Assembly (NCBI GenBank): GCA_029258795.1
Contig: JAPDKB010000002.1
Coordinates: 50,822 to 114,821 of the forward strand
DNA: 64,000 nucleotides
From: an archaeon
GTDB lineage: Archaea > EX4484-52 > WAPT01
Direction of reading: 5' to 3'
Part shown: positions 1,804 to 52,105 of the stretch, one piece after another
Layout of the letters: each line of letters begins with the position of its first letter
How positions within the stretch are numbered: the first letter of the stretch is position 1
The notes under the pieces: generated by a model
Told to the model about the DNA's origin: nothing
Seen by the model: the letters and a program-made list of their open reading frames with translations, nothing else
Database searches by the model: none
Program-made: the position numbers and the translations under genes

Positions 1804-2262
1804 TAGAAATTATCCGAATCGCATGTTTACCTAATCGCCAACATAATGCGTTACGAATATCACAAGGAGTGCTATCATCACGTGTTCTGCTATCATGTTG
1901 ACCGGGGTTCATTTTTCATTCTGGCCATTCTGTAACTCAGAAATGAAAGGAGAGACAACTCCCAGAAAACGCTGACCAAAACAGCCTTCTCCAATTCCAG
2001 AAGCAACATGGGCACCAGAAAGCTGAGAGCGAAGATGCTTATTAGGGAGAAGGCTTGCTCTACCGTGGTTCATCACTCCATTAGCTTGTTTGATGAACAG
2101 GTGGAACAAGCCTCCCTATAAATGTTTTGTTATCGGGACAGTATCAAAATTCCGGACATGTCAACTTAAGAACCAATTTCTCCACTCTGGCATAAAAATC
2201 AAAATAAGGGGGCTCAGCATATCTTGATTTTGCAAAACACACCTTAAAGGAGGTGATATACC

Positions 2263-2893
2263 ATGCTGAGCCCCCATATAGATGAAATGTTCTCAAGGAT
2301 ATTTAAAAGAAACAAAAAGCTGAAAGAAAAACAAGATAAAGCCAGTATTGCTTTATTTCTCGGGATTATCATACAGAAAAGCAGGAGATGAAACAGATAT
2401 GAGCCATGAGAACGTGAGAAAGTTATTCAGAAAAACGAAAGAATTTCTCAGGGAAATAAAGCCAGTAAAAAGAAAAACGATAGCAATGGATGAGACGGTG
2501 ATAAAAACAAACGGGAGGAGATGTTACATTTACGCAGCTTACGCATGAGGGCTTATGCAGCAAGAAGTTATTTGGCAGCTCTGGATTTTGTAAAACGGGT
2601 TTTTGGAGTTGGGTAAGAAAATAATCTCCTGTTTGCTGTTGATAAGGCTCCGCGGCATTAGACGGGTTTTTGAAAGACCCGGGTTGAGATATGTGCATGA
2701 GACTTCTGGAATGAGGAATAAAGTGTGGAGGGGGATCTTTTGGTTATTTGAAGCAGGGAAGTGTTTTGTTTTATTCACGACAATTAATGTGAATTTGGGG
2801 TCTGTGTTTGGAAGAATGGATAAAAGGGTTGAGGGATGGAGAAGCTTTGAGGCATCTGAATTTGTTTTTGAAGTTGTTTATGGTTTATTATGA
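2263..2893 (+). pseudogene. Degraded IS6-like transposase (multiple frameshifts)
   Basis: Three consecutive frames together read like one IS6-type transposase: MLSPHIDEMF...ALFLGIIIQKSRR*, then LYFSGLSYRK...MDETVIKTNGRRCYIYAAYA*, then RSYLAALDFVKRV and LRYVHETSGMRNKV; no single intact ORF. Confidence 0.5.
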
Positions 2894-3282
2894 TTGGTTT
2901 GTCAGGAGGTGAGGCTTATCCGGATGCACTCCTTGCACATACCACAAACATTTATATATAACTTTTGCCAAAATATAAAGCCATGATTAAAGATGCAATA
3001 ATGTTGGTTTCTATAATGTGGGGTGGAAGGTCGAAACAATAAGAAAAGAAAGTGGAAAGAATCTTCTTTTGAAATTGACTTTATTTTATGTTGCGCTGGG
3101 TATTGCTATATTTTTTTACTATGTTCGGGACTTTTATGTATATAATCAGGCATTGGATTTTTTGTTCGGTAAAATAGGTGGAACATTCCATACAATTTCA
3201 TTCCTTTCCATTTTCCTCTTCTCCGTAGATATATTTTATTCAGAGAAGTGGAAGAGATAGATATGCTTACTTTCTGGGAATT

Positions 3283-3636
3283 TTGCTGATGACTGTTTTC
3301 GTGATTTTCCTGTGGAACGTAACGTTTGCCAGTGAAATTCAGGTGGTTAAGCTTGATAAGGAGTACGTCGTAACTCACGTTTATTTTCCAGATAAATCCG
3401 AAATGATGCTTTACGTTGTTTTAGTGAGTGTAATATCATTTTTACCTATTCTCTCATTTTTAGCTTACGGAATAAAGGTTCCGGCGAAAAGAAGAAAGGC
3501 TCTAACCTATTGTTTGGGAATAGCCGTTACCGCCTCAGGAACCATGCTTTGCCTCCTTATATCCCCAATACTTGCACGAGTTATGTATCTGCTGGGTGCA
3601 GTCATCTGCTATTATGCTTTCAAAATGAAGAGTTGA
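3283..3636 (+). CDS. Small hydrophobic membrane protein (hypothetical)
   Basis: 117-aa ORF with 3 predicted TM segments, in an AT-rich region; no recognisable family. Confidence 0.3.
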   Translation: MLMTVFVIFLWNVTFASEIQVVKLDKEYVVTHVYFPDKSEMMLYVVLVSVISFLPILSFLAYGIKVPAKRRKALTYCLGIAVTASGTMLCLLISPILARVMYLLGAVICYYAFKMKS

Positions 3637-3640
3637 GGTA

Positions 3641-4114
3641 ATGAACATGACTGTGCTGCGAAAAAAAGAAAGAAGCATATGTATATCCCAGAGAGAATGG
3701 GCGGTGATGACTAAAAGGTTGTATGAAGTTGCAGGAAAGGTTTTTGGTAGAGCGCTCTATGAAGGTGGACAGGTAAAAGGAAAGGAATTGGTAAAAAAAT
3801 ATGGCGTAAAGAAAGACGATTTGAAACAATTGCAAGAAGTAATAAAAAAAGAGGGCCTTGCAAGAAATGTGGAGATACATGATAGAGAAATATTGGTTGA
3901 AGGTTCTTTTGAAGGAGAAGCTCTAAAACCATACACAAGGCCTGTGTGTTTTTATCTCGCAGGGATCATTGCAACCATTTATTCAAAGATAGAAAAGGAA
4001 GATGTAAAAGTTGAAGAAACGGACTGCATCTCCACAGGTAAAAAAGTGTGCAGGTTTGTCGTCAGGCCGCTTGAGTGGTATGAAAAGATGAATGAAGTTA
4101 TGGAAATAATTTGA
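3641..4114 (+). CDS. V4R domain protein
   Basis: 157 aa; C-terminal motif CFYLAGIIATIYS...ETDCISTGKKVCRFVV matches the V4R (4-vinyl reductase) Cys pattern. Confidence 0.55.
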   Translation: MNMTVLRKKERSICISQREWAVMTKRLYEVAGKVFGRALYEGGQVKGKELVKKYGVKKDDLKQLQEVIKKEGLARNVEIHDREILVEGSFEGEALKPYTRPVCFYLAGIIATIYSKIEKEDVKVEETDCISTGKKVCRFVVRPLEWYEKMNEVMEII

Positions 4115-4345
4115 AAAAAGTAAGCATGTTTTGGCTTCGTTTCCTTATATAAAGGGACAAGCAATTGCGACTTACTTATTCATATTATATCGTTTGGATA
4201 GAGGATGCTTGGAACTTTTGAAGTGAGAGGCTTTGGGACACCTATGTAAGCCACCTCCAAACATTTTTATTGGTTATAAGCTATATATCTCTATCGAACA
4301 AACACCTATTCGCGGTCTAAGCCGCAGTATAGCATCTTCGTTCAT

Positions 4346-4419
4346 GGGGATAGGGAAAGCTTAATCAAAATGTCGCAGTCTTAAGCTGCATGTCCCAAGT
4401 CAAGCTTTTCCCTATCCCC
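4346..4419. repeat. 17-bp inverted repeat (GGGGATAGGGAAAGCTT / AAGCTTTTCCCTATCCCC) with ~40-bp spacer
   Basis: Direct reading of 4346-4362 against 4402-4419; additional short palindromes nearby (GCGGTCTAAGCCGC); non-coding stretch. Confidence 0.5.
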
Positions 4420-4562
4420 TAAACATTTCCTTTCTTTTAAGCATGAAGTAAATTGCAATGCATAACTTTCTTGCTGCAGCAACTATTGTTTTGTGTGCTT
4501 CATAAATACCCACGGTGAGAGTCTGGGTCTTCTGGTGGCTATGCCCGACCGGGTTTTTTGAT

Positions 4563-5443
4563 ATGAGAGTGTGCATTGTTGGTCCTGCGAATCCTGGCGA
4601 GACAGAGATAGCTCTCACCGAGGCCGCCAAAAAGCGCTATTCCAAGGTATTGTACGCGCCCTTTTCCCGTCTCAGGATAGAAATGGTTGCCGGAGAGCCG
4701 AGAGCCTTCTACAAGGAATAGACCTTTCAGAGTTTGACATTGTCATACCCCGCGTCAGGAGGAGCGACGCGGATTTCGCATACGTCCTCTTAGGGGTTCT
4801 CGAGGACCTGGGAGTCTATTCTCCAATCTCGAGGGACAGCATTCTCTACGGGTTCAACGAGTATCTCATACCTTTCATTCTCGGGAGGGCTGGGGTCGAG
4901 ACCCTCACAACCCTCCTGGGCTCTACCCGGGCCGCCCTCGAGAAATCGATCTCGAGGCTGAGGTTCCCCGTGGTGGTAAAACTCCCCCACAACAAGGACG
5001 GGGCAATGATAGTGGACAGCGAGAAGATCGCCAGGTGCGTGCTCGACACTCTCGAGAGCCTCGGAGAGCCGATAATAGTCCAGGAGATGCTCGAGGGATC
5101 TGAGAGCTTCAGCATCCTCTATATCGGGGAGAGAACATATTGCATAGAAAAGCACAACGGGACCGCGAGAAAGAGAAAGCTTGGCATAGAAGAAAAGCGG
5201 ACCGCGAGGCGCATGACATCCCTCCTGGGAGCGAGCGTGTGTCAGCTGAACGGAATGATCTCTGGAGATAGGCTCGTGGTCATAGACCTCAACATCAACC
5301 CCTGGGTGCACAGACTCCAGGAGCACTTCAAGACCAACCTGTTCGAAAAGATCCTGGACCACCTGGAGAGCGGGTACTCTTCCTCTCGACGGGGCACTAT
5401 CCTAGACAAGTTCCTGAAATGGTTCGAGGAGATGAGGTGGTAG
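4563..5443 (+). pseudogene. RimK-like ATP-grasp ligase interrupted by a frameshift at ~4715
   Basis: N-terminal part MRVCIVGPANPGETEIALTEAAKKRYSKVLYAPFSRLRIEMVAGEPRAFYKE* (ORF 4515..4721) continues in another frame as GIDLSEFDIVIPRVRRSDADFAYV...PVVVKLPHNKDGAMIV (ORF 4571..5443); junction sits at a GG run; region is markedly GC-rich versus flanks. Confidence 0.6.
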
Positions 5444-5613
5444 AGTGTACAACGTTCTCATTACGGCATCGCCAAGAGTCTTGTGGACTACCCGCCAGCT
5501 TATTGAGGAGGGCAGGAAGAAGTTCAACCTCCACGTTGTCTCTCTATATGTTATCAATATTGAGGTTTCTCCCGGGATCGTCTCGTGCAGGCACAAGCGC
5601 TATTTATAAACGT

Positions 5614-6954
5614 TTAGTTTTTGCGGGAGAATAAGTCCTTATAATGACCCCAGTCCAGAATCTCCTTTAAGAAATCATTTATTTTAGACTCCAACATTAT
5701 GAGCCTTCCATCAGGGTCATAAACCCTTTCCAGAATATTTATGCGCTCGTCCAAAGTATTCCCATTTAAGCCTTGATAAAGAGGAGAGGAAAGAACTTCA
5801 TACAGTTTTTTAAGAATTTGTTCTTCACAAGCAAGAGCTTTACATTCCCGGATTTCCGATTTATATTTTTTAATTTCTTCAACCCTATTCTTCATTATTG
5901 AAATGCTTTCGCTTATTTTCTTCAGTTTTTCTTCACAATCCTCTACTCCCTTTATACTGTATTTCTTAAGCCAGATTTTTAATATCTGTGGCGGGAAAGT
6001 TTTCGGATTCTCTAGTATAATCCCCGAAAGATTTTCATCTCTTACTACCGAATTAATTTCATTGAAGATATCATCTCTGTTTATAACGTAATCCCATTTT
6101 ATTTCTATACCTTCCCGTGTTTTTTTTCCAAATTTATTCAACATATTAACAAAACTTCTCGGCAGATTGTTTGAATGTTTCTCCCACATATACTCTATTT
6201 TTCTGTCAGCTTTCACTCTATAGACTGAAAATAGACACGAAGAAAGTGGAGGTTCTACGCAGATTGGAAGACCTGAGATGTCTTCCAGACCTGAGATCTC
6301 TTCCAGATTTTCAGATTCTATATAACGATTATACTCATAGATTGGGTTTTTTGTTGATATTATAATTCTCTTGCCTTCATCCCGTTGCTCAAGGGCTATT
6401 AATGCAAGTTCATTCATGACAGCTTTTCCTATGTCTCTTGTAGCTTCTCTTGCGACAAGATCTCCTACGTAGTCCCAGTTATCGATGCATACAACCTCTG
6501 CCTCATTTATAAGCTTTTTTGGGTCAGTTAGATCGGCTTTTAGGGTCCATTCCCATTTTTCTCTATTTTCCTCTGAAAGATATATTCTAGGGTCAAATGC
6601 CTTTATATCTCCTGTGAAGATATCGAAATATACTCCTGCAGGAAATATATCTTCTTCCGCTAAAATATTAAACGCAGCTAGAATTCTGGTGGTTTTTCCT
6701 ATACCTCTTGTTCCACGAAGTTCTATATTATCTGACTTGATCCTATCTGCTAATATTTTCGAGTCCAAATAATATACTTTACATTTTAGTATGTCATTCA
6801 ATAGATTATAGTCCATTTCTTCCGCTCTGAGCGGAATATTCGGAGAGTAATCTTCTGATGTCACTTGATTTGGACTTTTAATATCAGTTTCCTTCATAGA
6901 TAGAAATTTTTGACATAAAATTTTAAATAATTTTGGCTCCACGCCATAAAACAT
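5614..6954 (-). CDS. Orphan P-loop NTPase (archaeal ATPase-like), function unknown
   Basis: 446 aa; Walker A LRGTRGIGKTTRIL, Walker B-like VVCIDNWD; coiled-coil-rich C-terminus; AT-rich gene beside IS elements. Confidence 0.55.
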   Translation of the reverse strand: MFYGVEPKLFKILCQKFLSMKETDIKSPNQVTSEDYSPNIPLRAEEMDYNLLNDILKCKVYYLDSKILADRIKSDNIELRGTRGIGKTTRILAAFNILAEEDIFPAGVYFDIFTGDIKAFDPRIYLSEENREKWEWTLKADLTDPKKLINEAEVVCIDNWDYVGDLVAREATRDIGKAVMNELALIALEQRDEGKRIIISTKNPIYEYNRYIESENLEEISGLEDISGLPICVEPPLSSCLFSVYRVKADRKIEYMWEKHSNNLPRSFVNMLNKFGKKTREGIEIKWDYVINRDDIFNEINSVVRDENLSGIILENPKTFPPQILKIWLKKYSIKGVEDCEEKLKKISESISIMKNRVEEIKKYKSEIRECKALACEEQILKKLYEVLSSPLYQGLNGNTLDERINILERVYDPDGRLIMLESKINDFLKEILDWGHYKDLFSRKN

Positions 6955-6978
6955 ATAAAAAACATTTAATTCGGCAAG

Positions 6979-7819
6979 GATTCATAACAAAAACAAGAGC
7001 TTTCTCTATTCCATCATCCAATTAATTTCCCATAAATTCAAAAACGAAGAAAATTTTTTCATGTTCTTAAAACCGCGAAACTTTCTGTATCTGTTCCTGA
7101 GCCATGAGATCAAACCTTCTGCCCTGTTATTGCTAAGAAAATAAATCATACCTTTATGAAAAACAATCTTTTTTTCAAAATGAGCTATAACACGCTTAAT
7201 CTTTCTAATTCTTAACCCCTTTCTCAGGGTTTTACTATCATATCCATACCATCCATCCGTTACTATTATCTCAGGTTTGTATCCCGCATTCTCTATAGCT
7301 TTTCTAAGCAATCTAACAACTTCTTTGCTTTCCCTTCTATCACTAACATGCATTGCCATAATTCTTGATCTTTCATCGCAGCAAACATAAAGATAGTTCA
7401 TTCTTCCCTTAGCTTTAACATACATCTCATCCAAATGCCATACCTCTGCAATTTTTTCAAATTCCTTATTCTTTGCCTTAAGCTCTTTGAGAAACTTTTT
7501 ATCCTTTCCAAATTTATGTATCCAGTTAAGAACAGTTCTTGCAGGAACTCTTATTCCTTTAAATTTTTCCATAATCTTCTCAACATCATAGGTTGAAACA
7601 ACAAATCTTGAGTAAAGCCACAGGCAAAGCATAACAATCTCTTTATCATATCTTATCCTCGCAAATTCGTCCATACCTTTTTCTGAGAAAACGTAGAAAC
7701 ATTTTTTGCATCTGTATCTCTGGTATTTCTTATCTTTATGTTTGTAAAAACCCAGCTTCCATATATCTCTTGATGAGCATCTGGGACATGAAATCTTCAT
7801 GAATTTTTTATTATGAATG
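6979..7819. mobile_element. IS6-like insertion sequence (~840 bp) with imperfect terminal inverted repeats
   Basis: Left end ATTCATAACAAAAA (~6980-6993) versus reverse complement of right end ATTCATAATAAAAA (~7805-7818), 13/14 match, bracketing the transposase ORF 7006..7800. Confidence 0.5.
7006..7800 (-). CDS. DDE transposase, IS6-family-like, with N-terminal zinc finger
   Basis: 264 aa; CPRCSS...YRCKKC zinc ribbon; DDE region WHLDEMYVKAKGRMNYLYVCCDERSR...IIVTDGWYGYD resembles the IS6 DETYVK..G..YL..A.D motif (IS1-like is an alternative). Confidence 0.7.
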   Translation of the reverse strand: MKISCPRCSSRDIWKLGFYKHKDKKYQRYRCKKCFYVFSEKGMDEFARIRYDKEIVMLCLWLYSRFVVSTYDVEKIMEKFKGIRVPARTVLNWIHKFGKDKKFLKELKAKNKEFEKIAEVWHLDEMYVKAKGRMNYLYVCCDERSRIMAMHVSDRRESKEVVRLLRKAIENAGYKPEIIVTDGWYGYDSKTLRKGLRIRKIKRVIAHFEKKIVFHKGMIYFLSNNRAEGLISWLRNRYRKFRGFKNMKKFSSFLNLWEINWMME

Positions 7820-7826
7820 AGGTTAT

Positions 7827-8726
7827 TTATATGTTTTTTGGCGTAGAACCCATTAATTTCTCTATTACTGCCAGAGTTTTCCCTATTAAATTTGTTTTTA
7901 AATTAAGCAAAAATTCGAAAAAGCTTACCCATAAGCTAAGATATTTCTTGCTTATCCCCCTAAACACCCTATACCATGATTTTAAAAAAGAAAATCTATT
8001 CTCTGCATTGTTAATATGAACATTGCCTTCCGCAAACCTTTTCTTGTTATGCGGGATTATTCCATGTTTATAACCTTTTCTCTCTATTTCCTTTGTATAA
8101 ATAGGAAAGTCATCAGTATTTACTATAGAGCCTTTCTCAACATAAGTTTCGAGTAGCTCTAAAACAAGCTCTTCACTTAAGCCTTCCAGAGCTACGAAGA
8201 ATATGCTCTTACCTTTTCTTTCAGTTAAAACTATGACTGGAGTTTTGCCTTCTTTTAGCCCACCTCTACCTTTAATTCCAGTTCCACCCCTCTTCATAGG
8301 CTTTCTAGAAAGCCTTCTATTACCCTTTTCACCAGCTGTTAGATAGGTTTCATCCATCTCAACATTAACTTTTAGCTTGGAAGCTATTTGCCTTGCAAGC
8401 AAATCTTGCTTGATTTTCTTAGCTGCTTTCCAAACATGCTCATATTTTCTACCAAGATCGATTGCTATTGAATAAATGCTTCTTCCAGCCGAATGCTCTT
8501 TTATTATATAAGACCATTCCCAAATCGGTAGCTTTGATTTATCGAATATCGTTTTGGTTCTATTGTTGAAAGTTCTTTTGCATTTTTTGCAAAGATAGCG
8601 TTGAAAGCCTTTCTTATCCTCACCCCTCTTAACAACCTCCTTTGACCCGCAGAAAACGCACCTTACTCCTTCTTTCCATCTAAGCTTTTGGATTATTTCT
8701 ATGCACTTCTCATCACCTGGGGGCAA
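7827..8726 (-). CDS. IS1595-family-like transposase
   Basis: 299 aa; N-terminal zinc ribbon CVFCGS...QRYLCKKCKRTF; DDE motifs VEMDETYLTAGEKG and VNTDDFPIY; C-terminal NAENRFSFLKSWYRVFRGISKKYLSLWVSFFEF typical of IS1595/ISH4. Confidence 0.7.
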   Translation of the reverse strand: MPPGDEKCIEIIQKLRWKEGVRCVFCGSKEVVKRGEDKKGFQRYLCKKCKRTFNNRTKTIFDKSKLPIWEWSYIIKEHSAGRSIYSIAIDLGRKYEHVWKAAKKIKQDLLARQIASKLKVNVEMDETYLTAGEKGNRRLSRKPMKRGGTGIKGRGGLKEGKTPVIVLTERKGKSIFFVALEGLSEELVLELLETYVEKGSIVNTDDFPIYTKEIERKGYKHGIIPHNKKRFAEGNVHINNAENRFSFLKSWYRVFRGISKKYLSLWVSFFEFLLNLKTNLIGKTLAVIEKLMGSTPKNI

Positions 8727-8820
8727 AATCTCTTGCAGTCAGCATACATTGTTATTTTATAGTTTTCTATTTTCGTTATGAGATGTGAGCGAAAGCTTTT
8801 TGTAGTTGATTTTTTGAACT

Positions 8821-9636
8821 TTGTTTATGATGCCCGGTAAAAAAGCTGTGATTCTAATAGGAGGAATGATAATGGTTGTGGCAGTTCTGAGCTTATGCGT
8901 GCAGAAACCGGAAGAAGGGGCACCCACGATTCAGCCAGGAAAGGAATTAAAGCTTTCTGATTTCCCTGAAGTGTTTAGCGAGAGTACTTTGATTGTTGTT
9001 GGAGACAACGCTTCTGAGGTTGAAGTTCAAGCAGCTAATGAAATTGCTGAATATTTGGAGGATGAGACCGGGAATAAACCTTTGATAAAGAAGTATTCTG
9101 AGGTTAGTGAGGAAGATAAGAGAAATTACAACTTGATTATTGTTGGCGCTTCTAATTCTAACCCTATGCTAAGGAAAGTCTCTGAGGAATGTACAAGAAA
9201 GAACTTCAAAAAATTAGAATTTAAGGGAGTTAATAGTTATTGGCAGGGCACAGGTAAAGGATACATACTTATTTTAGAAAACTTATGGTCGACAAGTAAA
9301 TGTATGTTGATTGTTGATGGATATGACAGCAGCGGGCTAGAATCTGCAGTTAGCACCCTTTTAAATACAGATATAATTATGTCCATAAACAATAGCGGTA
9401 TTTTAGTAAAATTAGAGAGTAGTACTCGAATACAAACTCTTCCAGTGTCTAAACTTTCAAAAATAGTGGCTAAAGATATTGCAGCAGAGTATTTGATAAA
9501 ACGATGTCAAACTATTCCTGAGGATAGTTTTAAGCTGAAAGTGTCGGATTTTGGAGATTACTGGCTAATTGAAGGAGGCTGTATCAAACTTCTAGTAGAT
9601 AAAAATAATGGTTTTGTAGAGGAGGTGAAATCTTGA
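8821..9636 (+). CDS. Secreted protein with S-layer-like N-terminal domain
   Basis: 271 aa; N-terminal signal/TM; conserved block TLIVVGDNASEVEVQAANEIAEYLEDETGNKPLIKKYSEVSEEDKRNYNLIIVGASNSN resembles archaeal S-layer N-terminal domains; paralog of the 9757..10685 gene. Confidence 0.55.
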   Translation: MFMMPGKKAVILIGGMIMVVAVLSLCVQKPEEGAPTIQPGKELKLSDFPEVFSESTLIVVGDNASEVEVQAANEIAEYLEDETGNKPLIKKYSEVSEEDKRNYNLIIVGASNSNPMLRKVSEECTRKNFKKLEFKGVNSYWQGTGKGYILILENLWSTSKCMLIVDGYDSSGLESAVSTLLNTDIIMSINNSGILVKLESSTRIQTLPVSKLSKIVAKDIAAEYLIKRCQTIPEDSFKLKVSDFGDYWLIEGGCIKLLVDKNNGFVEEVKS

Positions 9637-9756
9637 AGGCCAATTAATGACCTTCTTTGTATTATTCGTTCTCTTGTGTCCTACTGCATACGACATTCTA
9701 TCATCGAGATACTCTCTAAAATTCTATAGTAGTAACCAACTTTTGAAAGTTCACAT

Positions 9757-10685
9757 TCATGTATTATCACCTCCTACTAACATGGAACCGTCGCTACATC
9801 CTTCAGCCTGGCATGGAACTTTTACATTTTTTAAACCCCAGTCGTGGATCACTACTAAATTTAGACTCTTATTTAGATTAATCACAGCACAACTATGGTT
9901 GACAATATAGTTCAGAGTTGGATAACCTACGAAATAAGTTTCGTTTGATGATAAAAAGCTCTTGTTAACAATTATTCTCCCGTAATATTTATCTTCGCCA
10001 ACCTGGTGTAAAGGTGCTGTAACTATTTCTTTAATCGACTCGAACGTTCTTGTACTTTTATTATATCCGATCAATTGATATAAAGTCACTACTTTAGGTG
10101 GCTCTCCACTTAACTCATATTTTGGATCTGATGGTTCATCTGTTAGAACTAAAACATCTATTCTGATCTTGTCCTTAATGCTTGGAGCAATTACTACACT
10201 GGTTTCATTTTTAATCAGTGCAATCGGGTTTAGTTCAAGTCCCGCACTATACACCCCCACTCATCCCACCCTTCAACCAGTAACATCGCCTTATTTTTAT
10301 TCCAAGGATTCCTCAAAATTTCCAAAACACCCTTACCCTCTCCCGGAAATGTATCATTAACTTCCAAAACATCAACCATAGAATAAACTTCTATCAGCAT
10401 GAGATTGGAATTCGGCGTGCCAACAACAACTAAATTGTGGTTTCTTTTATCTTTCTCCGTGATTTCAGAATATTTTTTTATTAAGGGTTTATCCCCTGTT
10501 TCATTTTCCAAATAAGAGGTAATCTCGTTTGCGGCTTGCAATTCAATCTCAGAAGCATTATCACCAACGATAATTAAGGTATTATTCCCGAAATTTTGCC
10601 AGAGGAAAATGCCTATTATCAAAAGGATTAAAATTACGGTTCCTGCAATAATTAAGATCTTTCTGTTCATCATAATGTTTATCAT
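9757..10685 (-). pseudogene. Frameshifted paralog of the S-layer-domain protein
   Basis: ORFs 10230..10685 and 9757..10260 overlap by 31 nt in different frames; together they align with the 8821..9636 protein (LLVEGWDE then SAGLELNPIALI versus LIVDGYDSSGLESAVSTLL); shift lies in a poly-C run near 10254-10258. Confidence 0.55.
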
Positions 10686-10843
10686 TAAGTCTCATTATGC
10701 TTTTTTAATTATAAAATTTACGGCTCCAAGCGGCTTCGAGACAAAATTCATAGCTTGAGTTTTCGAGCTATGAAGATCAGAACTCCATACCACAAAAATT
10801 AGTTAGCTAAAACATTTCCGTATAAAAAACCATATTATACAGC

Positions 10844-11848
10844 ATGGGGGATAAAAAGAAAAGAAAAATAACAACCGAGGAAATAAGAGACATTACAAAC
10901 AAACTTGATAAAATAATCAAATATTACAAAGAGAAATACGGGGAAGATAAGAGCAGGAGAGACTGGCGTACATATGAGCAGAGAAGAACATTAAGGATGA
11001 AGCAGGCAGGGAGAGAGCTAAAAAATCTTATAGAAAGGGCTGCAGAGAATATAGAAATAGCTAAGGATAACAACAGGGGAAGAAAGCCGAAGCTTACAGC
11101 CAAGGACAAAGCCCTGATCATTCTTATAAAGGAAATATTCGATCTGAGCAACAGAGAACTTGCTGATATGATATTCATCTTTTCCTTAATGGCAGGAGTT
11201 GATGTAAGTTATAAAACCATTGAGAGAGCTTACGATGATGAGCTTGTTAAGTTAAGCCTGCACAACTTATTCGTTCTCATGGTTAAGGAAAAGATTATAG
11301 ATGATGTTGAGCTTGCTGGAGATGGAACTGGATACAGCTTGAGCATTAAGAAGCAATATGCTGATATTGAGGATGAGGGAAAGCAAAGAAAGGATTTCGT
11401 TTATTACTTTGCTCTGCTCGATTTAAGAACAAATCTTTATGTTGGATATGGCTACAGTAAAAGGTCGGAGAGGGATGCTTTTGATAAGGCCATGAAAATT
11501 ATGAGTAAGCTCGGCATTAATGTTAAGAGTGTGAGGCTTGATAGATATTATTCAAGCAACGCTGTGGTTAAAGAATATTTTGATGATAAGGATGTTAAGC
11601 TTTATTTAATTCCCAAGAAGAATGCTTCTGTTAAAGGCTGTAAGAAATGGAAGGAAGTTATGCATGGCTTTGCTGATGATGTTTACGGGTTTTTGCGTGA
11701 GTATTTTAAAAGGAATAAAGTTGAAAGCATGTTTTCCTTTGATAAGCGTAAGTTTTCTTCTCGATTAAGGGTCAGGAAGGATGAGAGAATTGCTACGAGC
11801 TTGCTTGCAAGGACTGTCTTGCATAATTTGTTTTGGTTTTATGGTTAG
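10844..11848 (+). CDS. Putative DDE-type transposase (family uncertain)
   Basis: 334 aa; lysine-rich N-terminus with HTH-like region, LAGDGTGYSL and later acidic motifs; sits among IS elements; family assignment not verified. Confidence 0.45.
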   Translation: MGDKKKRKITTEEIRDITNKLDKIIKYYKEKYGEDKSRRDWRTYEQRRTLRMKQAGRELKNLIERAAENIEIAKDNNRGRKPKLTAKDKALIILIKEIFDLSNRELADMIFIFSLMAGVDVSYKTIERAYDDELVKLSLHNLFVLMVKEKIIDDVELAGDGTGYSLSIKKQYADIEDEGKQRKDFVYYFALLDLRTNLYVGYGYSKRSERDAFDKAMKIMSKLGINVKSVRLDRYYSSNAVVKEYFDDKDVKLYLIPKKNASVKGCKKWKEVMHGFADDVYGFLREYFKRNKVESMFSFDKRKFSSRLRVRKDERIATSLLARTVLHNLFWFYG

Positions 11849-11923
11849 CTATTGGGTTAATTTTGTCCCAAAGCCACCACAACCACAAACTTTATATACG
11901 ACGATCGCAATATTTCTATCTGG

Positions 11924-12952
11924 GTGATTTGGATGGCGGAGAATTCTCCTAATTACCGATATGATCCTCTCATAGGCGAGCTTTACTTGAATAAAATCTC
12001 GTGTGAGTTAACAACCAGAAAGTTTCACAATGACTTGAGGAGGGAGTTCGAGGCCATTCTGGGCGCGGTAGCTAAATCCATGTTCTACACGGTGGGTAAG
12101 GTAACGGGCATGATTGTTGCAAAGTACTTTGATGATATTGATGTGCTTTCGTGGATGGGTTGGGGTGTGCCTCTGGTTAAAAAAGATGGAAGCGTGGAAG
12201 TTAAAAATTCTTACATGACCATGTATCGGAGCGAGATAGGCAAGAAGTCATGCGATATCGTTGCAGGATTTCTGGCAGGGTGGTTCAGTAGGAAGGAAAA
12301 GGATAATGTCGATTTTATAGAATCGAGGTGCGCCTCAACCACTAAGTTCAAGACCTGCAGGTTTGAAAGGGTTGAAAAGAATGTGGCTGTCGAAGTACCT
12401 AAAATCAGGATGAAGAAGCCCAGAGAACACCTGAAAAATGTGAATATAAACCTGAAACCATCCAGTGGTGAGATAATTTATAGGGGAGATTCGTCTCTCA
12501 TCATTCCACGTGGCTTTACCGCGATCTTTCAGAGGGAATTTGAAAGGGTGATCGGGGCTGTTGCTTCCAGAAAAATGTACGAAGTTGTGAAGAAAATAAG
12601 TTATGAGGCAGTTGTGAAGGAGCAGGGGTTCAGGTTTATTGGACTTGCTATTCTTCCCAAATTCATCCGTGCAAAGCTGCTTCTTCATGAAGAGCTTGTG
12701 CAGCTACCCGAAAGAGGTTTTGGGAATGTCAGGGTTTTAAGACTGGATTTGAAGGAAGGGATTCTGCTGGAAATTGATAATTCTTACAACGCATTCACCT
12801 ACGGTAAGGTTGGCAAGCCCGTGTGTCACACGCTTGCAGGAGTTCTTGCGGGAGGTGCCAAGGCGGTGATTGGCGGAGATTGGGAATGCGTGGAGAATAA
12901 ATGCGTTGCTGCAGGAGATGGTGTCTGCGAGTTCGAGTTGAAGCCGGCGTGA
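11924..12952 (+). CDS. Tandem V4R domain protein
   Basis: 342 aa; two repeats ending in V4R-like Cys motifs (CDIVAGFLAGWFS...CASTTKFKTCRFE and CHTLAGVLAGG...WECVENKCVAAGDGVCEFEL). Confidence 0.55.
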   Translation: MIWMAENSPNYRYDPLIGELYLNKISCELTTRKFHNDLRREFEAILGAVAKSMFYTVGKVTGMIVAKYFDDIDVLSWMGWGVPLVKKDGSVEVKNSYMTMYRSEIGKKSCDIVAGFLAGWFSRKEKDNVDFIESRCASTTKFKTCRFERVEKNVAVEVPKIRMKKPREHLKNVNINLKPSSGEIIYRGDSSLIIPRGFTAIFQREFERVIGAVASRKMYEVVKKISYEAVVKEQGFRFIGLAILPKFIRAKLLLHEELVQLPERGFGNVRVLRLDLKEGILLEIDNSYNAFTYGKVGKPVCHTLAGVLAGGAKAVIGGDWECVENKCVAAGDGVCEFELKPA

Positions 12953-13011
12953 AAGTACTGCAAAATTTAAAAGTTAACGCTGTAAAATATTTTTCGTTCT
13001 CCTGCCCGGGT

Positions 13012-13181
13012 GCGGGGGTTGCCGAGCCTGGCCAAAGGCGCTGCCTTGAGGGGGCAGCCGCCGCGGTGTATGAGAGGTGGCGCCGCAGTGGCCCATTCCC
13101 TTAGTGGGTTCGAGGGTTCAAAAGCTTGGTCAAGCCGTCCTCCCTCGGCAGCTTAAATGGCTGGAAGTCCCTCCCCCCGCA
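13012..13181 (+). tRNA. tRNA-Leu (anticodon GAG, tentative) with two non-canonical introns (variable region and T-loop)
   Basis: GCGGGGG acceptor pairs with CCCCCGC+A+CCA; D-arm GCCGAGCCTGGCCAAAGGCG; anticodon arm CTGCC-TTGAGGG-GGCAG; T-stem GAGGG...CCCTC split by ~45 nt; ~40 extra nt before the variable arm (TCCCTTAGTGGGTTC). Confidence 0.6.
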
Positions 13182-13213
13182 CCACCATCATGCTTCATGT
13201 TCCTTACGTTCAT

Positions 13214-13351
13214 GCGGGGGTTGCCGAGCCTGGCCAAAGGCGCGGGGCTTAGGACTCCGTGGCTCAGTGCCTGCGTGGGTTCGAAGGCCGCTGTTCGGTG
13301 GCTGGGTTTTCAAGTCCGATCTTAACGCGGCCGGAACTCCCACCCCCCGCA
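13214..13351 (+). tRNA. tRNA-Leu (anticodon TAG) with T-loop intron
   Basis: Same 30-nt 5' end as the upstream Leu gene; anticodon arm CGGGG-CTTAGGA-CTCCG; long variable arm; T-stem GTGGG...CCCAC interrupted by ~50 nt after TTCGAA; CCA encoded. Confidence 0.65.
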
Positions 13352-15466: not shown

Positions 15467-16633
15467 TCACTGCTCTCTCTTGCTCCCGATCGTCACCAGC
15501 TCCGTGTTTTCAAGCGCTTTTTCCACAAGCCCTTCAACATCCATATTCTCCTCTATTCTCTTCACAACCTCCAGCTTTGCCCTTGTTTCGGGATGCTTCG
15601 CTATCATGAACGAGCAGCAATCGGGATATGGTTGAATTGAAATTTCGTACGTGCCGATCCTTTTTGCAAGATCTATGGTTTCCTCCTTGTCAAAGCCAGC
15701 TAGCGGTGTGAGCACGGGCATGCCTGTAGCTTCATAAATCGCTGCAAGATTGTCCAGAGTTTGCGATGCTACCTGCGCCACATTGTCTCCGGTGACAAGC
15801 GCGTTTGCTCCCTCCTTTCTCGCTATTTTTTCACCTATCCTCATCATGAACCGCCTGTAGATTATCATTCTGTAGGAGGCGGGCACAACCTTTATTATCT
15901 CGCGCTGCACATCTCCAAAATTCACCATGTAGAGCTTGCTCTCGCCCTGAAATTCTGCAAGCACCCTCACAATGCTCTCGATCTTCTTCCTCACCTCCCT
16001 GCTGTGCAGCGTTTCATTGAAGAAATGGACAAAAACAATTTTGCATCCGCGTTTCATGAGAAGGAATGATGCAACAGGGCTGTCTATACCGCCTGAAAGC
16101 AGGGACACCACCCTGCCGGAAACGCTGACCGGCAGACCGCCAACACCCTCAATTCTTTCCGTGTAGATGTACGCTTCCTTCTCACATATCTCGATGTGCA
16201 CCACAACATCCGGCTCTTTCATCTTCACCTTCTTGCCCAGCTTCTCCACCACCACACTCCCAACCATTCTGTTGATCTCCATCGAGTTGTATGGAAAGGA
16301 TTTGTTTGAGCGTGATGCCGCTATCTTGAACGTGCTGAACTTCATGTCCTGGAGAATGGCTACTGCAGCTTTCTTGATCGCCTCGATATCCAGCTTGCAA
16401 ACCCTTGCCAGCGCGAAATATCTTATGCCCGGAGTTTTGCTGAGCTTCTCCGCAATTTCATCAGCCTTGCTTTCATCTCTAATCTCCACTATTATCCTTC
16501 CAAACCTTCTCCTTGCCAGCGCGCCGGCCCCCTTCACCTTCCTGTTGATGTTCTCCACCAGCTTTTTCTCAAAGAATTCCCTGTTCTCTCCTTTCAACCC
16601 TATTTCGGAATAATGCACAACAAAAACCTTCAT
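15467..16633 (-). CDS. thiI: tRNA 4-thiouridine sulfurtransferase ThiI
   Basis: 388 aa; N-terminal THUMP-like region; PP-loop SGGIDSPVASFLL; overall ThiI architecture. Confidence 0.8.
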   Translation of the reverse strand: MKVFVVHYSEIGLKGENREFFEKKLVENINRKVKGAGALARRRFGRIIVEIRDESKADEIAEKLSKTPGIRYFALARVCKLDIEAIKKAAVAILQDMKFSTFKIAASRSNKSFPYNSMEINRMVGSVVVEKLGKKVKMKEPDVVVHIEICEKEAYIYTERIEGVGGLPVSVSGRVVSLLSGGIDSPVASFLLMKRGCKIVFVHFFNETLHSREVRKKIESIVRVLAEFQGESKLYMVNFGDVQREIIKVVPASYRMIIYRRFMMRIGEKIARKEGANALVTGDNVAQVASQTLDNLAAIYEATGMPVLTPLAGFDKEETIDLAKRIGTYEISIQPYPDCCSFMIAKHPETRAKLEVVKRIEENMDVEGLVEKALENTELVTIGSKREQ

Positions 16634-17839: not shown

Positions 17840-19750
17840 ATGTTCCCTCTGCAGTTTTTCAACATGCGCTTCTTCCCGTTCTCAACGATCAGGCCCGGAC
17901 AAAAGGATATGGTGGAAGCTGTAAGGGATGCGTGCGAGCAGGGGAAAGTTCTGCTGGTGCACGCTCCAACCGGAATAGGAAAGACCGCAGCTTCGCTTGC
18001 TCCTTCCTTGGAATATGCGGTGGAGCATGACAAGAGAGTTGTGTTTTTAACTCCGAGGCACACGCAGCACAAGATAGCTATTGATACAGTCAGAAGGATA
18101 AATGCTCGTGCCAACGTGAATCTGAAAGTTGTGGATGTGATCGGTAAGAAGTGGCTTTGCAGGATGGAGGGAATAGAAAAGCTGAGCTCCGCTGAGTTCA
18201 ACGAGTACTGCAGAGCTCTGAAGAGAAACGAGGCCTGCCCTTTTTACAACAACACGTGGAACAGGAGAAGTGGAGGGCTTACCAAGAAAGCTGAGGCCAT
18301 GATAAAAAGCGTGAGGAGAGATGTACTCTATGCGGAAGAGGTCTATGAACTTTGCGATGACCTGTGCCCCTATGAGATCCTCATGCAGGCAGCCAGAAAT
18401 GCCAACCTGCTGATAGGAGACTATTATCATATCTTCCATGAAAGAATAAGGAAGAGCTTCCTCGGCAGGAGCAACACGAAGCTGGAGGATGTTGTTCTTG
18501 TGGTGGATGAAGCGCACAACTTGCCAGCAAGGATAAGGGAACTCATGTCATCATCAACAAGCCTGCTTGCAATGAAAAGAGCTGAGAGAGAAGCGGAGGT
18601 TTTTGGCTACGACGATCTGGCCGAGATCATAGCCACAATCAGAACGCATGTGAAAAAGAAGCTGAAGGAAAAGCTGGAGAAATCCGGAACACCTCAGCTT
18701 TACGTTGGAAGAAGTTTGCTGCTCGATGCAGCTGAAAATAGTGGTGCTGATCTGGAAGAGCTGCTGGACTACATGGAGGAGGTGGCTGACGAGGTCAGGG
18801 AGGAGAAAAAGCGCTCATATGTTGGCGGGTTTGCATCATTTTTGAGGAGGTGGAAGGATGAAGCTCCAATCTACTGCAGAATAGCGGAGAAGAAGCTGAC
18901 CAGAAAGGGCAGAACCAACTATGTTCTCACGCTTCACTGCCTTGACCCCGCTCCCATTGCCTCGGAGGTGTTTAAGGAAGCGCATGCCACAATTCTCATG
19001 TCCGGCACCTTGCTCCCGCTTGAAATGTATGCAGATGTGCTCGGCGCAACGGAACTTGATGCAGTCAGATTGAAACTGAGGTCGCACTTTCCGCGCAGCA
19101 ACAAGCTTGAGATCGTGGTGGATGATGTTACAACCCAGTACAACAGAAGGGAGGAAAGGAACTTCGAGAAAATAGCGAAATACATCATTTCAGTAGTTAA
19201 TGCCACTCCTGACAACGTTTGCGTTTTCTTCCCGAGCTATGAGCTCCGCGACACCATCGCAAGAATGGTTGAGCTCTCGCTTGAAAAGAAGGTGCTTCTG
19301 GAGAAGCAGGGGATGAGCAAGAGCAGGAAAGCGCAGCTATTCCATGAGTTTGTAAGCGCAGCTGAGCAGGGAGGAGCATGCCTGCTTGGTGTGATGGGTG
19401 GCAGCTTCGATCAGGGTGTTGACTTTCCGAACAACGTGGTGAAGTGTGTTATCGTGGTGGGGCTGCCACTCGAAAAACCGGATTTGCTGACCGAAGCGAT
19501 GATAAACTACTATGATGCTAAATTTGGCAAGGGATGGGATTATGCCTACACCTATCCCGCAGTCATAAAAGCGCAGCAAGCAGCTGGAAGAGCCATAAGG
19601 AGTGAGAAGGATAAAGCGGTTGTGGTTTATATGGACAAGCGTTATCTCTGGGCAAACTACAGAAAGTGCTTCCCTGCTGAAACAAGATTCATAGTGTCAA
19701 GAAATCCAGCAGAGCTCATAAAAAGGTTCTTCTCGGATAGCAAGAAGTGA
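17840..19750 (+). CDS. XPD/Rad3-like (DinG family) Fe-S helicase
   Basis: Walker A VHAPTGIGKTAAS, DEAH box VVDEAHNL, four-Cys cluster (CRMEG...EYC...CPFY...CDDLCP); start placed at first ATG after the upstream minus-strand gene (17840 or 17864). Confidence 0.8.
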   Translation: MFPLQFFNMRFFPFSTIRPGQKDMVEAVRDACEQGKVLLVHAPTGIGKTAASLAPSLEYAVEHDKRVVFLTPRHTQHKIAIDTVRRINARANVNLKVVDVIGKKWLCRMEGIEKLSSAEFNEYCRALKRNEACPFYNNTWNRRSGGLTKKAEAMIKSVRRDVLYAEEVYELCDDLCPYEILMQAARNANLLIGDYYHIFHERIRKSFLGRSNTKLEDVVLVVDEAHNLPARIRELMSSSTSLLAMKRAEREAEVFGYDDLAEIIATIRTHVKKKLKEKLEKSGTPQLYVGRSLLLDAAENSGADLEELLDYMEEVADEVREEKKRSYVGGFASFLRRWKDEAPIYCRIAEKKLTRKGRTNYVLTLHCLDPAPIASEVFKEAHATILMSGTLLPLEMYADVLGATELDAVRLKLRSHFPRSNKLEIVVDDVTTQYNRREERNFEKIAKYIISVVNATPDNVCVFFPSYELRDTIARMVELSLEKKVLLEKQGMSKSRKAQLFHEFVSAAEQGGACLLGVMGGSFDQGVDFPNNVVKCVIVVGLPLEKPDLLTEAMINYYDAKFGKGWDYAYTYPAVIKAQQAAGRAIRSEKDKAVVVYMDKRYLWANYRKCFPAETRFIVSRNPAELIKRFFSDSKK

Positions 19751-22918: not shown

Positions 22919-22942
22919 AGTGGAAAGTGCGGTGTGTGTTCG

Positions 22943-23815
22943 ATGCCCTTTACGATATGTGTTGTTTCAGGTAAGGGTGGTGTTGGCAAGACAACGGTAG
23001 CCGCAGCTCTCTCCAAAATATTGGCAAGAAAGTACAGGGTACTTGCGGTTGATGCGGATGTTGAATGCCCAAACCTCCACATCCTTTTGAAGGCAGGAGA
23101 GCTTGAGAAGGTGAGGGACGTTTGCACCACGCTTCCCGAGATAGATGAGAAGCGATGCATCCAATGCGGCAGGTGTGTGGAAGTGTGCAGAAAAAACGCG
23201 CTTTTCAGGAGAAAAGAAGGAGTTCCTCTCCTAATAGAAGAGCAGTGCAACGGCTGCAAGGCATGCTTCATTGTGTGTCCCACCAAAGCTATAGGGGAGA
23301 AAAAAGTTGTGATGGGAACGATAAGGAAGCGCGTGATCGAAAATGACAGGCTGGTTTTGCTATCCGGAGAGTTAGAGGTGGGACAGGAGGAGCCGACACC
23401 TGTTGTCAGAGAGCTGATGAGGGAGGTTGAAGCTGTAAAGCGTGATTTCGATTTTGTGGTGGTGGATGCAGCTCCCGGCGTGAAGTGCAACGTGGCTGCA
23501 GCTCTCGAGGGATGCGATCACACCTTGCTTGTTGTGGAGCCGACACCTTTCGGTGTTGAAGATGCGAAGCGAGTTGCGGAGCTAATCAAAATTATAGGTG
23601 TGGATGCTCATGTTGTCATCAACAGGTCTGTAAAGCGGGAGGAAGATGAGAAGAGAGTAATGGGTAGCGTACCATTTTCTGTAATCTGTACTTTACCCTA
23701 CTCCACGGAAGCCGTTAGACTCTATGTGGCAGGAGATGTGGAAAAGATGGAAGGTATAGGGGATATCGCAAAAGCTGTGGAGAAGCTTGCGGAGCTTTCG
23801 GGTGAGGAGGGATGA
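22943..23815 (+). CDS. MinD/ParA-superfamily P-loop ATPase with inserted 4Fe-4S ferredoxin domain
   Basis: Deviant Walker A VVSGKGGVGKTT; two Cys clusters CIQCGRCVEVC and CNGCKACFIVCP. Confidence 0.75.
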   Translation: MPFTICVVSGKGGVGKTTVAAALSKILARKYRVLAVDADVECPNLHILLKAGELEKVRDVCTTLPEIDEKRCIQCGRCVEVCRKNALFRRKEGVPLLIEEQCNGCKACFIVCPTKAIGEKKVVMGTIRKRVIENDRLVLLSGELEVGQEEPTPVVRELMREVEAVKRDFDFVVVDAAPGVKCNVAAALEGCDHTLLVVEPTPFGVEDAKRVAELIKIIGVDAHVVINRSVKREEDEKRVMGSVPFSVICTLPYSTEAVRLYVAGDVEKMEGIGDIAKAVEKLAELSGEEG

Positions 23816-24693
23816 AGAAAGTTGTGGTTGCATCCGGAAAGGGAGGGACGGGCAAAACAACCATCGCGTCAAGCCTCGCGGTGACGGCAGCAAAGCATTG
23901 TAAAGTGGTGGTGGCTGACTGTGATGTTGACGCTCCCAACTTGAAGCTGATTCTGGGGAAAGATAATATGGATGGCTTTGATTTTGTGGAGGTCAGCACG
24001 TCGGAGAAGGCATGTGTGGGTGAGCAGCGCTGCATCAACTGCGGGAGGTGTGTTGAAGCGTGTCAGTTTAATGCCATGCAGTGGGACAACAAGAAAAAGC
24101 TACCGAAGGTCAAGAAGATTTACTGCGAGGGTTGCGGAGCATGCCAGCTTGTGTGTCCAGCTGGAGCCATAGAAATAAAGGCTGTTAGAAACGGTAGAGT
24201 GGGGTGGGGAAAGCTAAGCCCAAATCTCTGGCTGGTTTTCGGTGAGCTTTACGTGGGAGAGTCAGCAAGTGGTAAAATAGTGGTGGATGTGAAGAAGAAA
24301 GCTCTCGAGCTTGCAAGAAATATAAATGCTGACCTGTTCATTGTTGATGCTTCCGCAGGTATAGGATGTCCCGTGATAGCATCCATGGCGTTCATGGATC
24401 ACGCTCTCATCGTTGCGGAGCCCACACCCTCAAGCGTCAGCGACATGGAAAGGATGCTCATGCTGGCGGAACACTTCAGGATGGAAAAGAGCGTGGTGAT
24501 AAATAAAGCCGGGCTGAGCGAGAGATGGCGAAAGGAAATAGAGACCATGGCATCGAGATATGATGCGGAAATCATAGCCACAATTCCGCACGACATGAGA
24601 GTTATGAATTCTGTATCAAGGCTCGTTCCTCTTGTTGAATATGAAGCCTCTTATCTTCCTTTATTCGAAAAAATTCTGACAAGATTACTCTGA
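23812..24693 (+). CDS. MinD/ParA-superfamily P-loop ATPase with ferredoxin domain (paralog)
   Basis: VASGKGGTGKTT; CINCGRCVEAC and CEGCGACQLVCP; start overlaps upstream stop (ATGA). Confidence 0.75.
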   Translation: MKKVVVASGKGGTGKTTIASSLAVTAAKHCKVVVADCDVDAPNLKLILGKDNMDGFDFVEVSTSEKACVGEQRCINCGRCVEACQFNAMQWDNKKKLPKVKKIYCEGCGACQLVCPAGAIEIKAVRNGRVGWGKLSPNLWLVFGELYVGESASGKIVVDVKKKALELARNINADLFIVDASAGIGCPVIASMAFMDHALIVAEPTPSSVSDMERMLMLAEHFRMEKSVVINKAGLSERWRKEIETMASRYDAEIIATIPHDMRVMNSVSRLVPLVEYEASYLPLFEKILTRLL

Positions 24694-40255: not shown

Positions 40256-40537
40256 GCGGCAGGGCTAGGCCGGGGAGCTAGCCCCTCCCTGTAACCGCAA
40301 ACGGGCTAACGGCGGGGCCGAAAACCGGGGGGCGGGCGATTGGCGGCTCGCTGGGCAGCTTGCTGCTGAACAATGACTCTCTGCCCCCGAAGGCCGCTGT
40401 ACCGGTGAACCGGGTCAGGCCCGGAAGGGAGCAGCCCTAAGCCGGTACTTCGGTGCTTCGGGATCAGCGGAGAGGAGGTAGGCAGCATCTCTGCCCGCGA
40501 GCTTAGCCGCGCTCCACCCCCGGGAAGCCCTGCCGCG
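40256..40537 (+). ncRNA. Signal recognition particle RNA (7S/SRP RNA)
   Basis: Helix-8 core GGUGAACCGGGUCAGGCCCGGAAGGGAGCAGCCCUAAGCC; 5' GCGGCAGGGCUAGGCCGGGG pairs with 3' CCCCGGGAAGCCCUGCCGC; GC-rich ~280 nt; TATA-like AAAATATTTAA about 30 nt upstream. Confidence 0.75.
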
Positions 40538-51984: not shown

Positions 51985-52105
51985 CCCGCCGTAGCTTAGT
52001 CTGGTAGAGCGCTCGGCTGTAGGTCTGTGCCGCGTGGTATGGCGCAGCCACGCAGCCAGTTGCTCAGAAACCGAGAGGTCCCCGGTTCGAATCCGGGCGG
52101 CGGGA
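51985..52105 (+). tRNA. tRNA-Tyr (anticodon GTA) with canonical anticodon-loop intron (~47 nt)
   Basis: Acceptor CCCGCCG/CGGCGGG+A+CCA; D-arm GCTT-AGTCTGGTA-GAGC; anticodon stem CTCGG...CCGAG with CTGTAG then intron; intact T-arm CCCGG-TTCGAAT-CCGGG. Confidence 0.75.

Follow-up and report, generated by a model that had tools for sequence, protein, structure and literature searches.

The window (the whole 64,000-nt stretch of archaeal DNA that was analysed) holds at 4563-5443 a broken gene, here called R1, followed by a short piece of a second gene, R2, by an AT-rich open reading frame on the opposite strand and by an insertion sequence. Positions are those of the window unless another sequence is named, and L003 stands for the locus in the metagenome-assembled genome (MAG) GCA_054010815.1 in which R1 and R2 are complete. 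The features of the region are as follows:

4484 to 4562, plus strand: region upstream of R1 (promoter and 5' leader), apparently transferred together with it; blastn homology to L003 starts at 4484
4563 to 4721, plus strand: N-terminal piece of R1, 52 codons (MRVCIVG...FYKE) and then a premature TAG; equal to residues 1-52 of P0004, the intact protein encoded in L003, except for S17A
4717 to 4718, plus strand: frameshift site, AA in the window (TACAAGGAATAGAC) against AAA in L003 (TACAAGGAAATAGAC), from DNA alignment
4718 to 5443, plus strand: C-terminal piece of R1 in the shifted frame, IDLSEFD...EEMRW*
5445 to 5609, plus strand: stub of R2, a canonical RimK; its first 52 codons are homologous to the 294-aa RimK of L003 (87% nucleotide identity), after which the ORF crosses the junction and runs to a stop
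5594 to 5600, no strand: deletion junction, with one CAAGCGC kept and the roughly 4.5 kb between the L003 repeat copies absent
5601 to 6930, minus strand: ORFan segment with a 427-aa P-loop coding sequence at 5614-6897, 99.2% identical to L003 15592-16921; right part of the block shared with L003
6935 to 7850, minus strand: IS6-family insertion sequence with a transposase gene at 7006-7800 (DDE_Tnp_IS240, transpos_IS6) and 29-nt terminal inverted repeats at 6935-6963 and 7822-7850

Translation from the ATG at 4563 reads MRVCIVGPANPGETEIALTEAAKKRYSKVLYAPFSRLRIEMVAGEPRAFYKE (MRVCIVG...PRAFYKE) and ends at the TAG at 4719-4721; the other frame, from 4715/4718, reads ..IDLSEFDIVIPRV...EEMRW* and ends at the TAG at 5441-5443. 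Joined into a protein of 293 aa, the two pieces match two Pfam models above their gathering cut-offs: Rimk_N over residues 1-92, a match that spans the break (33.7 bits; cut-off, 26.4), and RimK over residues 106-267 (35.6 bits; cut-off, 21). With both models passing, N-domain first and ATP-grasp domain second, R1 belongs to the RimK-like ATP-grasp proteins (Pfam PF08443 and PF18030), as the first-pass annotation of this DNA had proposed. That annotation had also called the stretch clearly more GC-rich than its flanks, which is right (the flanks have 38% GC at 3600-4483 and 34% at 5601-6930), and had put its GC content in the high 50s, which is slightly too high: 4563-5443 has 54.7%, and 300-nt windows reach 58%. 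This GC content lies 2.2 SD above the norm for the window, and equally GC-rich 881-nt windows make up only 0.2% of the 64 kb; the sole other locus as GC-rich is an archaeal SRP RNA gene (40258-40534; 139 bits).

When 5.8 billion proteins were searched with a word index, the only matches were the window's own protein record, P0001, and two canonical RimKs with 22-25% identity. P0001 shares its 90% cluster with one other protein, P0004, which is uninterrupted, 293 aa long, and from NCBI assembly GCA_054010815.1; its locus is L003, and the same intact gene is carried by two Logan contigs, L004 and L005. Repaired R1 has 97% protein identity to P0004 over both pieces, confirming that the two ORF pieces together rebuild one RimK-like protein. 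Base-by-base alignment sets TACAAGG-AATAGAC in the window against TACAAGGAAATAGAC in L003 (orthologous DNA, AAGGAAATAGAC). By this comparison, one A has dropped out of an AAA in the window, and FYKEIDLSEFD (FYKEIDL) is the ancestral peptide. The single-base frameshift that had been proposed is therefore real in the alignment, AA against AAA, but its proposed repair is not the ancestral state: an extra G (AAGGGAATA, giving FYKGIDLSEFD) would restore the frame too, but the AAA of the intact orthologue encodes Glu-Ile. There is a second 1-nt indel at about 4550, where the window has GGG and L003 has GGGG.

The window copy of R1 thus cannot be read through between the start and the stop that its orthologue uses, since a premature TAG at 4719-4721 follows the 1-nt deletion relative to L003. 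As judged from assemblies, the same lesion is found in the window and in two further contigs, L001 and L002, against an intact gene in the close orthologues L003, L004, and L005, and R1 is accordingly classed as a pseudogene. The public databases (NCBI, Logan, and ENA) carry the shifted-frame ORF at 4571-5443, with a GTG start at 4571, as the 290-aa protein P0001. Its first 48 residues (MHCWSCESWRDRDSS...) are an out-of-frame translation of the real N terminus of R1, and we flag P0001 as a mis-annotated public protein.

The first-pass annotation had offered two explanations for the break, recent inactivation of a horizontally acquired gene or a homopolymer sequencing error. A sequencing or assembly error, which would leave R1 intact in the organism, is made conceivable by the nature of the change, 1 nt in the length of a short A run, and by the source of the window, which comes from a MAG. 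L001, a Logan contig of 6,314 nt from SRR22064148, is 100% identical to window positions 3074-9387; being identical over 6.3 kb, it may derive from the same reads as the MAG, in which case L002 would be the only truly independent witness (2.6x coverage, one SNP). L002 is a SPAdes-style ENA contig of 1,638 nt from ERZ25515926 that is identical to the window across 4400-5700 and differs from it by one internal SNP, at position 4310, which suggests a separate read set. Both contigs are 100% identical to the window over 1,301 nt around R1, a stretch that includes the site of the missing A as well as the left junction and the deletion junction. With the identical base missing from three assemblies made by at least two different assemblers, one of them with an SNP elsewhere, an error is unlikely; in addition, a run of only 2 to 3 bases, here AAA to AA, is not a place where errors are common, which makes homopolymer error a weak alternative. 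Elsewhere in the window (outside the AT-rich island described below), ORFs of 300 aa or longer add up to about 32.7 kb and are unbroken, indicating that the assembly is not indel-prone, and the partner gene R2 was destroyed independently by the 4.5-kb deletion, so the locus is decaying either way. Scanning of JGI metagenome contigs for the intact and the frameshifted R1 alleles gave no match.

A full-length R1 could also still be made if the break were a site of programmed -1 ribosomal frameshifting or of transcriptional slippage: the two frames overlap, and the -1 shift would be needed at GAA-UAG, beside a stop codon able to pause the ribosome. We give this next to no credence. Positions 4709-4721 (C UAC AAG GAA UAG) contain no X XXY YYZ slippery heptamer, the A run of only 2 nt is far below the length at which polymerases slip, and the closest orthologues (L003, L004, and L005) as well as the more distant P0007 to P0014 are all in frame here. 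On the evidence of these in-frame orthologues, a programmed frameshift appears effectively refuted, and we keep to the reading of a real, inactivating mutation.

R1 is not a lone gene but part of a truncated operon remnant, a point that the first-pass annotation had missed. Blastn aligns the region with L003 in two matches. The first, a 1.1-kb fragment, pairs window positions 4484-5600 with L003 9921-11039 at 95.7% identity; in L003, it takes in R1 (10001-10882) with 79 nt upstream of it and R2 (10884-11768) as far as codon 52. R2 overlaps the R1 stop in L003, and the arrangement is the same in the window at 5441-5447. The second match pairs window positions 5588-6930 with L003 15578-16921 at 99.0% identity and corresponds to a P-loop ORFan of 427 aa, AT-rich and encoded on the opposite strand. 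What separates the two matches in L003 is the remainder of R2 together with the genes for a 277-aa membrane protein, a YgjP-like protein, and an XPD-like helicase. A 9-bp repeat, CAAGCGCCA, is present at both L003 breakpoints (11031-11039 and 15583-15591) and in a single copy in the window, which is the signature of a microhomology deletion of about 4.5 kb; the chance of a 9-nt match at the given breakpoints is about 4e-6 to 8e-5. The deletion fused the R2 stub, cut to 52 codons, to the AT-rich ORFan segment.

Assemblers can be misled by repeats such as the 1.3-kb segment that the two genomes share at 99% identity, and the GC-rich piece might for this reason be an assembly or binning chimera of two co-occurring archaea, joined across the shared ORFan. 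We consider this highly improbable, because joining through the ORFan would have brought in the full set of upstream genes of the donor and not a 9-bp microhomology junction 4.5 kb away, and because the left junction at 4484 and the deletion junction at 5600 both lie inside single contigs of L001 and L002. A true deletion in the organism's genome is the reading that we retain.

Divergence from L003 is uneven along the block. Nucleotide identity is 97.4% in R1, 87% in the R2 stub, and 99.2% in the ORFan segment; in other words, the stub (5445-5600 against L003 10884-11039) has diverged by 13%, with a dS of about 0.29, against 2.6% for R1 and 0.8% for the ORFan segment. Such abrupt changes over 2.4 kb suggest either that the donor population was mosaic or that exchange took place more than once; the reading of one import from one donor would need to be widened in one of these ways.

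The ORFan itself carries the motifs GTRGIGKTT and VVCIDNWD and has a GC content at third codon positions (GC3) of 0.31; two archaeal genomes that differ in composition carry it at 99% identity, and in L003 it forms a discrete AT-rich insert of 1.3 kb. Its only other relative among the 5.8 billion proteins is a Micrarchaeota protein with 26% identity. It has no match in Pfam, PADLOC, or PHROG, and a scan against IMG/VR found no relative. A longer ORF of 446 aa, extending to 6954, was rejected as an artefact, since it runs into the IS6 inverted repeat.

Base composition bears on where the block came from. GC3 values were as follows:

Window core genes: 0.45 to 0.60 (30 or more ORFs; maximum, 0.60)
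Island genes of the window (about 2 to 12 kb): 0.29 to 0.41
Repaired R1 of the window: 0.72
L003 genes other than the ORFan: 0.66 to 0.75 in 22 of 24, including ribosomal proteins, Spt4, RpoE, eRF1, R1, and R2
L003 genes below that range: 2 of 24, ArgRS (0.61) and an unnamed gene at 17973-18683 (0.51)
L003 ORFan: 0.31

By this pattern, the composition of R1 is that of the L003 lineage and is foreign to the window; a comparison of GC3 with that of core genes was one of the checks suggested in the first-pass annotation, and it sets R1, at 0.72, apart from the core genes of the window. XPD is the one housekeeping gene that the two sequences have in common; its protein identity is 42%, against 95.7-99% for the shared DNA. 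Together with GC3, this one pair of helicases (which could be paralogues) suggests that the two genomes are distantly related. The GyrA of the window, used as a query, matched only bacterial-type proteins at about 45% identity, and a concatenated query of L15e and RpoE matched at no more than 70% identity, across many archaeal phyla. The composition of R1 is therefore unlike that of its host and like that of the candidate donor, and nearly identical DNA lies in an otherwise dissimilar genome, as expected after horizontal acquisition. In L003, the operon is complete and stands among ribosomal protein, Spt4, RpoE, and eRF1 genes of matching composition; in the window, a fragment of it stands in an island rich in mobile elements. 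We infer that transfer was from an L003-like donor into the window lineage.

For the operon to be native to the window lineage and merely decaying there, its similarity to L003 would have to come from vertical descent or from transfer in the opposite direction. The core GC content of the window (45-50%) is admittedly not very far from 54.7%. This reading is nevertheless improbable, for the GC3 of R1 is outside the range of all window core ORFs and inside the tight range of L003, the operon is complete among housekeeping genes in L003 and a fragment beside IS6 and IS1595 elements in the window, and XPD is only 42% identical. An acquired origin remains our interpretation. No relative of the window lineage with an empty site was found; when the upstream V4R gene and the ORFan were looked up by exact sequence, only L001 came back. 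Two adjacent 293-aa ORFs at 22934-24693, considered as native RimK paralogues, were rejected as MinD/ParA-type 4Fe-4S proteins.

The right-hand end of the block abuts the IS6 element, whose terminal inverted repeats are imperfect and start 4 nt beyond the end of L003 homology at 6930. No clean target-site duplication was found for the element. A second IS6 end or a solo inverted repeat was searched for at the left boundary (4484) and not found, and tblastn with the IS6 transposase revealed no degraded second copy. In the biology of IS26, replicative cointegrate formation and later deletion leave junctions that have no clean target duplication, as is seen at the IS6 edge here. The block resembles passenger DNA captured by IS6/IS26 elements in that a foreign segment ends 4 nt from an IS6 terminal inverted repeat with no clean target duplication; it differs in that the window has one IS6 copy only and that the left edge at 4484 has no IS end. 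The position of the IS6 element at the boundary suggests that it had a role in capture or rearrangement, by a mechanism that would resemble that of IS26.

Around the block, an AT-rich island extends from about 2000 to 12000, with 33-39% GC and GC3 of 0.29-0.41 in a genome of 45-50% GC. It contains a V4R/MsvR-like gene, small membrane ORFs, and IS remnants (2348-2893). An IS1595-family transposase gene (7827-8726) adjoins the IS6 element, its 3' end overlapping the right inverted repeat, and a possible further transposase-like ORF with no Pfam match is located at 10844-11848. Two paralogous membrane-anchored proteins (8821-9636 and 10230-10685) are 54% identical, and 10230-10685 and 9757-10260 may be parts of a split gene. 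Neither PADLOC nor PHROGs gave any relevant match to the island genes or R1, which leaves a defence island or provirus unsupported. In the 370-nt spacer to the left of the foreign fragment, there is a strong, nearly perfect hairpin of about 75 nt at 4345-4420 (GGGGATAGGGAAAGCTT...AAGCTTTTCCCTATCCCC) with a folding z-score of -6.2; it has no other copy in the window, no match in Rfam, and none in JGI metagenome contigs, and the two matches of a 17-mer from it in IMG/VR are consistent with chance. Rfam identified no RNA family in or beside the region.

The first-pass annotation had further called R1 a ligase. Family membership stands, but catalysis is doubtful even for the intact form, from which several RimK nucleotide-binding residues are absent. 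Full-length R2 of L003 is a canonical RimK, matching Pseudomonas RimK 7QYR at 1.6e-39 and carrying the motifs KLLSGSGGKGV, RSNLASGG, GVD, and EVN. The best match of R1 to a solved structure is the same protein, at 9.4e-10 over residues 17-269 (PDB phmmer), and R1 shares with the characterized RimKs (E. coli 4IWX and Pseudomonas 7QYR/7QYS, poly-alpha-L-glutamate ligases of RpsF) the layout of Rimk_N followed by ATP-grasp. It falls below the cut-offs of the RimK alpha-L-glutamate ligase families (TIGR00768, 38.1 against 143.4 bits; PRK10446, 28.7 against 331). In 7QYR numbering, the nucleotide-binding core of RimK consists of K141, E178, I180, F210, S212, and N213, with D248, E260, and N262 as acidic and amide residues (PMC10092738). 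Aligned with 7QYR, R1 retains K141, E178, I180 (as Leu), and N262 and has Asp for E260, D248 is changed to Asn and R189 to Ser, the segment carrying F210, R211, S212, and N213 is missing, and the glycine-rich loop EGTQGIGV is replaced by PHNKDGAM; R1 therefore does not have the residue set of a RimK ligase. The closest relatives of R1 (P0007, P0008, P0009, P0011, P0012, and P0014) share these losses. Judging by these residues, ancestral R1 was probably a non-catalytic partner rather than a ligase.

R1-like proteins are few. An exhaustive HMMER scan with R1 of 1.84 billion representatives found only 334 proteins at an E value of 1e-3 or lower, the closest 37% identical, and a scan of GTDB representative genomes with P0004 found no relative. 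Other archaeal ligases of the ATP-grasp superfamily, namely MptN, CofF, and LysX/ArgX, are of similar size (about 280-300 aa) and match R1 weakly (MptN, NF040720, E = 0.01; LysX/ArgX, 3VPB, E = 0.064). R1 scores 14.9 bits against the MptN cut-off of 350, however, and no genes for a LysW-type carrier or for methanopterin or F420 pathways lie nearby in L003.

A canonical RimK gene follows the R1 relative directly in L003, L036, L039, and L040. Upstream, a RimB-like retropepsin is encoded in L037, L039, and L040; a MATCAP-like protease (peptidase) is encoded nearby, on the downstream side, in L040 and L041, where DUF72 also lies downstream. In L003 (neighbourhood 10001-12608), R1 and R2 are followed by the gene for the 277-aa membrane protein, which has a weak MscS beta-domain match. 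In bacterial rimABK systems, the ligase extends the C-terminal tail of a protein and the protease trims it (PMC7343187, PMC11957791). The Pseudomonas rimABK operon offers a parallel in that a RimB-like retropepsin precedes the R1-R2 pair in the more distant relatives (PMC7343187, PMC11957791). Unlike that operon, the copy in the window is frameshifted, its partner gene is truncated, the host is an archaeon, there is no RimA or c-di-GMP component, and the archaeal neighbourhood has an added paralogue that is probably non-catalytic. A tentative wider proposal, which we think may well not hold, is that R1 belongs to a small, undescribed group of archaeal RimK paralogues that have degenerated catalytically and would act as non-enzymatic partners of the downstream RimK. 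The two, often joined by a RimB-like retropepsin and in some cases by a MATCAP-type carboxypeptidase, would form a module that writes and trims C-terminal amino-acid tails of a target protein; the module and the 99%-conserved P-loop ORFan would have been exchanged between distantly related uncultured archaea. Apart from the pseudogene, a subfamily that has lost nucleotide-binding residues and is yet conserved beside a canonical RimK could merit biochemical study.

Comparison of R1 with its orthologue in L003 gives some indication of when it was inactivated. The two differ at 22 sites (Sd, 12.5; Nd, 9.5), with a dS of 0.064, a dN of 0.014, and a dN/dS of 0.22; with 12.5 of the 22 synonymous, the departure from neutrality has a binomial P of 0.0003-0.0015. 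The ratio suggests that most of the divergence arose under constraint and that inactivation was recent relative to the split from L003. With the same frameshift in three assemblies and a donor-like composition, it also favours recent inactivation of a horizontally acquired gene over error. Outgroup comparison shows that at least five of the nine amino-acid changes arose on the window branch, including three (S156I, R248W, and F252L) at sites conserved in the subfamily, and these few sites hint at relaxed constraint on the window copy. GC-to-AT changes are in excess in the window copy (13 against 8), as amelioration would predict, but not significantly so (P = 0.38).

Taken together, the segment at 4484-6930 appears to be a foreign piece of chromosome whose donor would have been a more GC-rich archaeon close to MAG GCA_054010815.1, and which today lies inside the AT-rich, IS-laden island of about 10 kb in the window's archaeon. 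In the donor lineage, the block would have read degenerate RimK-like R1 (293 aa), canonical RimK R2 (294 aa), the 277-aa membrane protein, the YgjP-like gene, the XPD-like helicase, and the AT-rich 427-aa ORFan. Two lesions would then account for the present state: the deletion of about 4.5 kb between the two copies of the 9-bp repeat, which would have removed everything from R2 codon 53 to just past the ORFan stop, and the loss of a single A from the AAA at R1 codon 52/53, which would have put a stop after 52 codons. R2, the likely catalytic partner of R1, would thereby also be gone from the window copy, and its loss may have relaxed selection on R1 before the frameshift or together with it; deletion of the presumed partner is a simple reason for the decay of R1. 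We regard it as likely that 4563-5443 is a non-functional pseudogene of a RimK-like protein and the remnant of a two-gene RimK-type operon acquired horizontally from an archaeon richer in GC. As a pseudogene beside insertion sequences it is ordinary, neither a working nor an unusual gene, and what is new here is one dead member of a known superfamily. The window itself is of little significance, being a textbook case of acquired DNA that decays beside insertion sequences; it does document that two poorly sampled archaeal lineages of different base composition exchanged DNA very recently (95.7-99% identity).

Some further features were observed elsewhere in the window. At the right edge of the island, a 31-nt exact direct repeat (13011-13041 and 13213-13243) consists of the 5' part of a tRNA-Leu gene (13223-13300) and the 10 nt upstream of it; the outer copy lies 200 nt before the gene and may have been left by an old integration event. 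A second AT-rich patch at 52000-54000 (ORF 52433-53863), with 30-33% GC and a GC3 of 0.26, lies directly beside a 121-nt, apparently intron-containing tRNA gene (51985-52105) and may be another island. Finally, a single 592-aa ORF at 35404-37182 appears to be a PyrK-PyrD fusion that unites the electron-transfer and catalytic subunits of dihydroorotate dehydrogenase.
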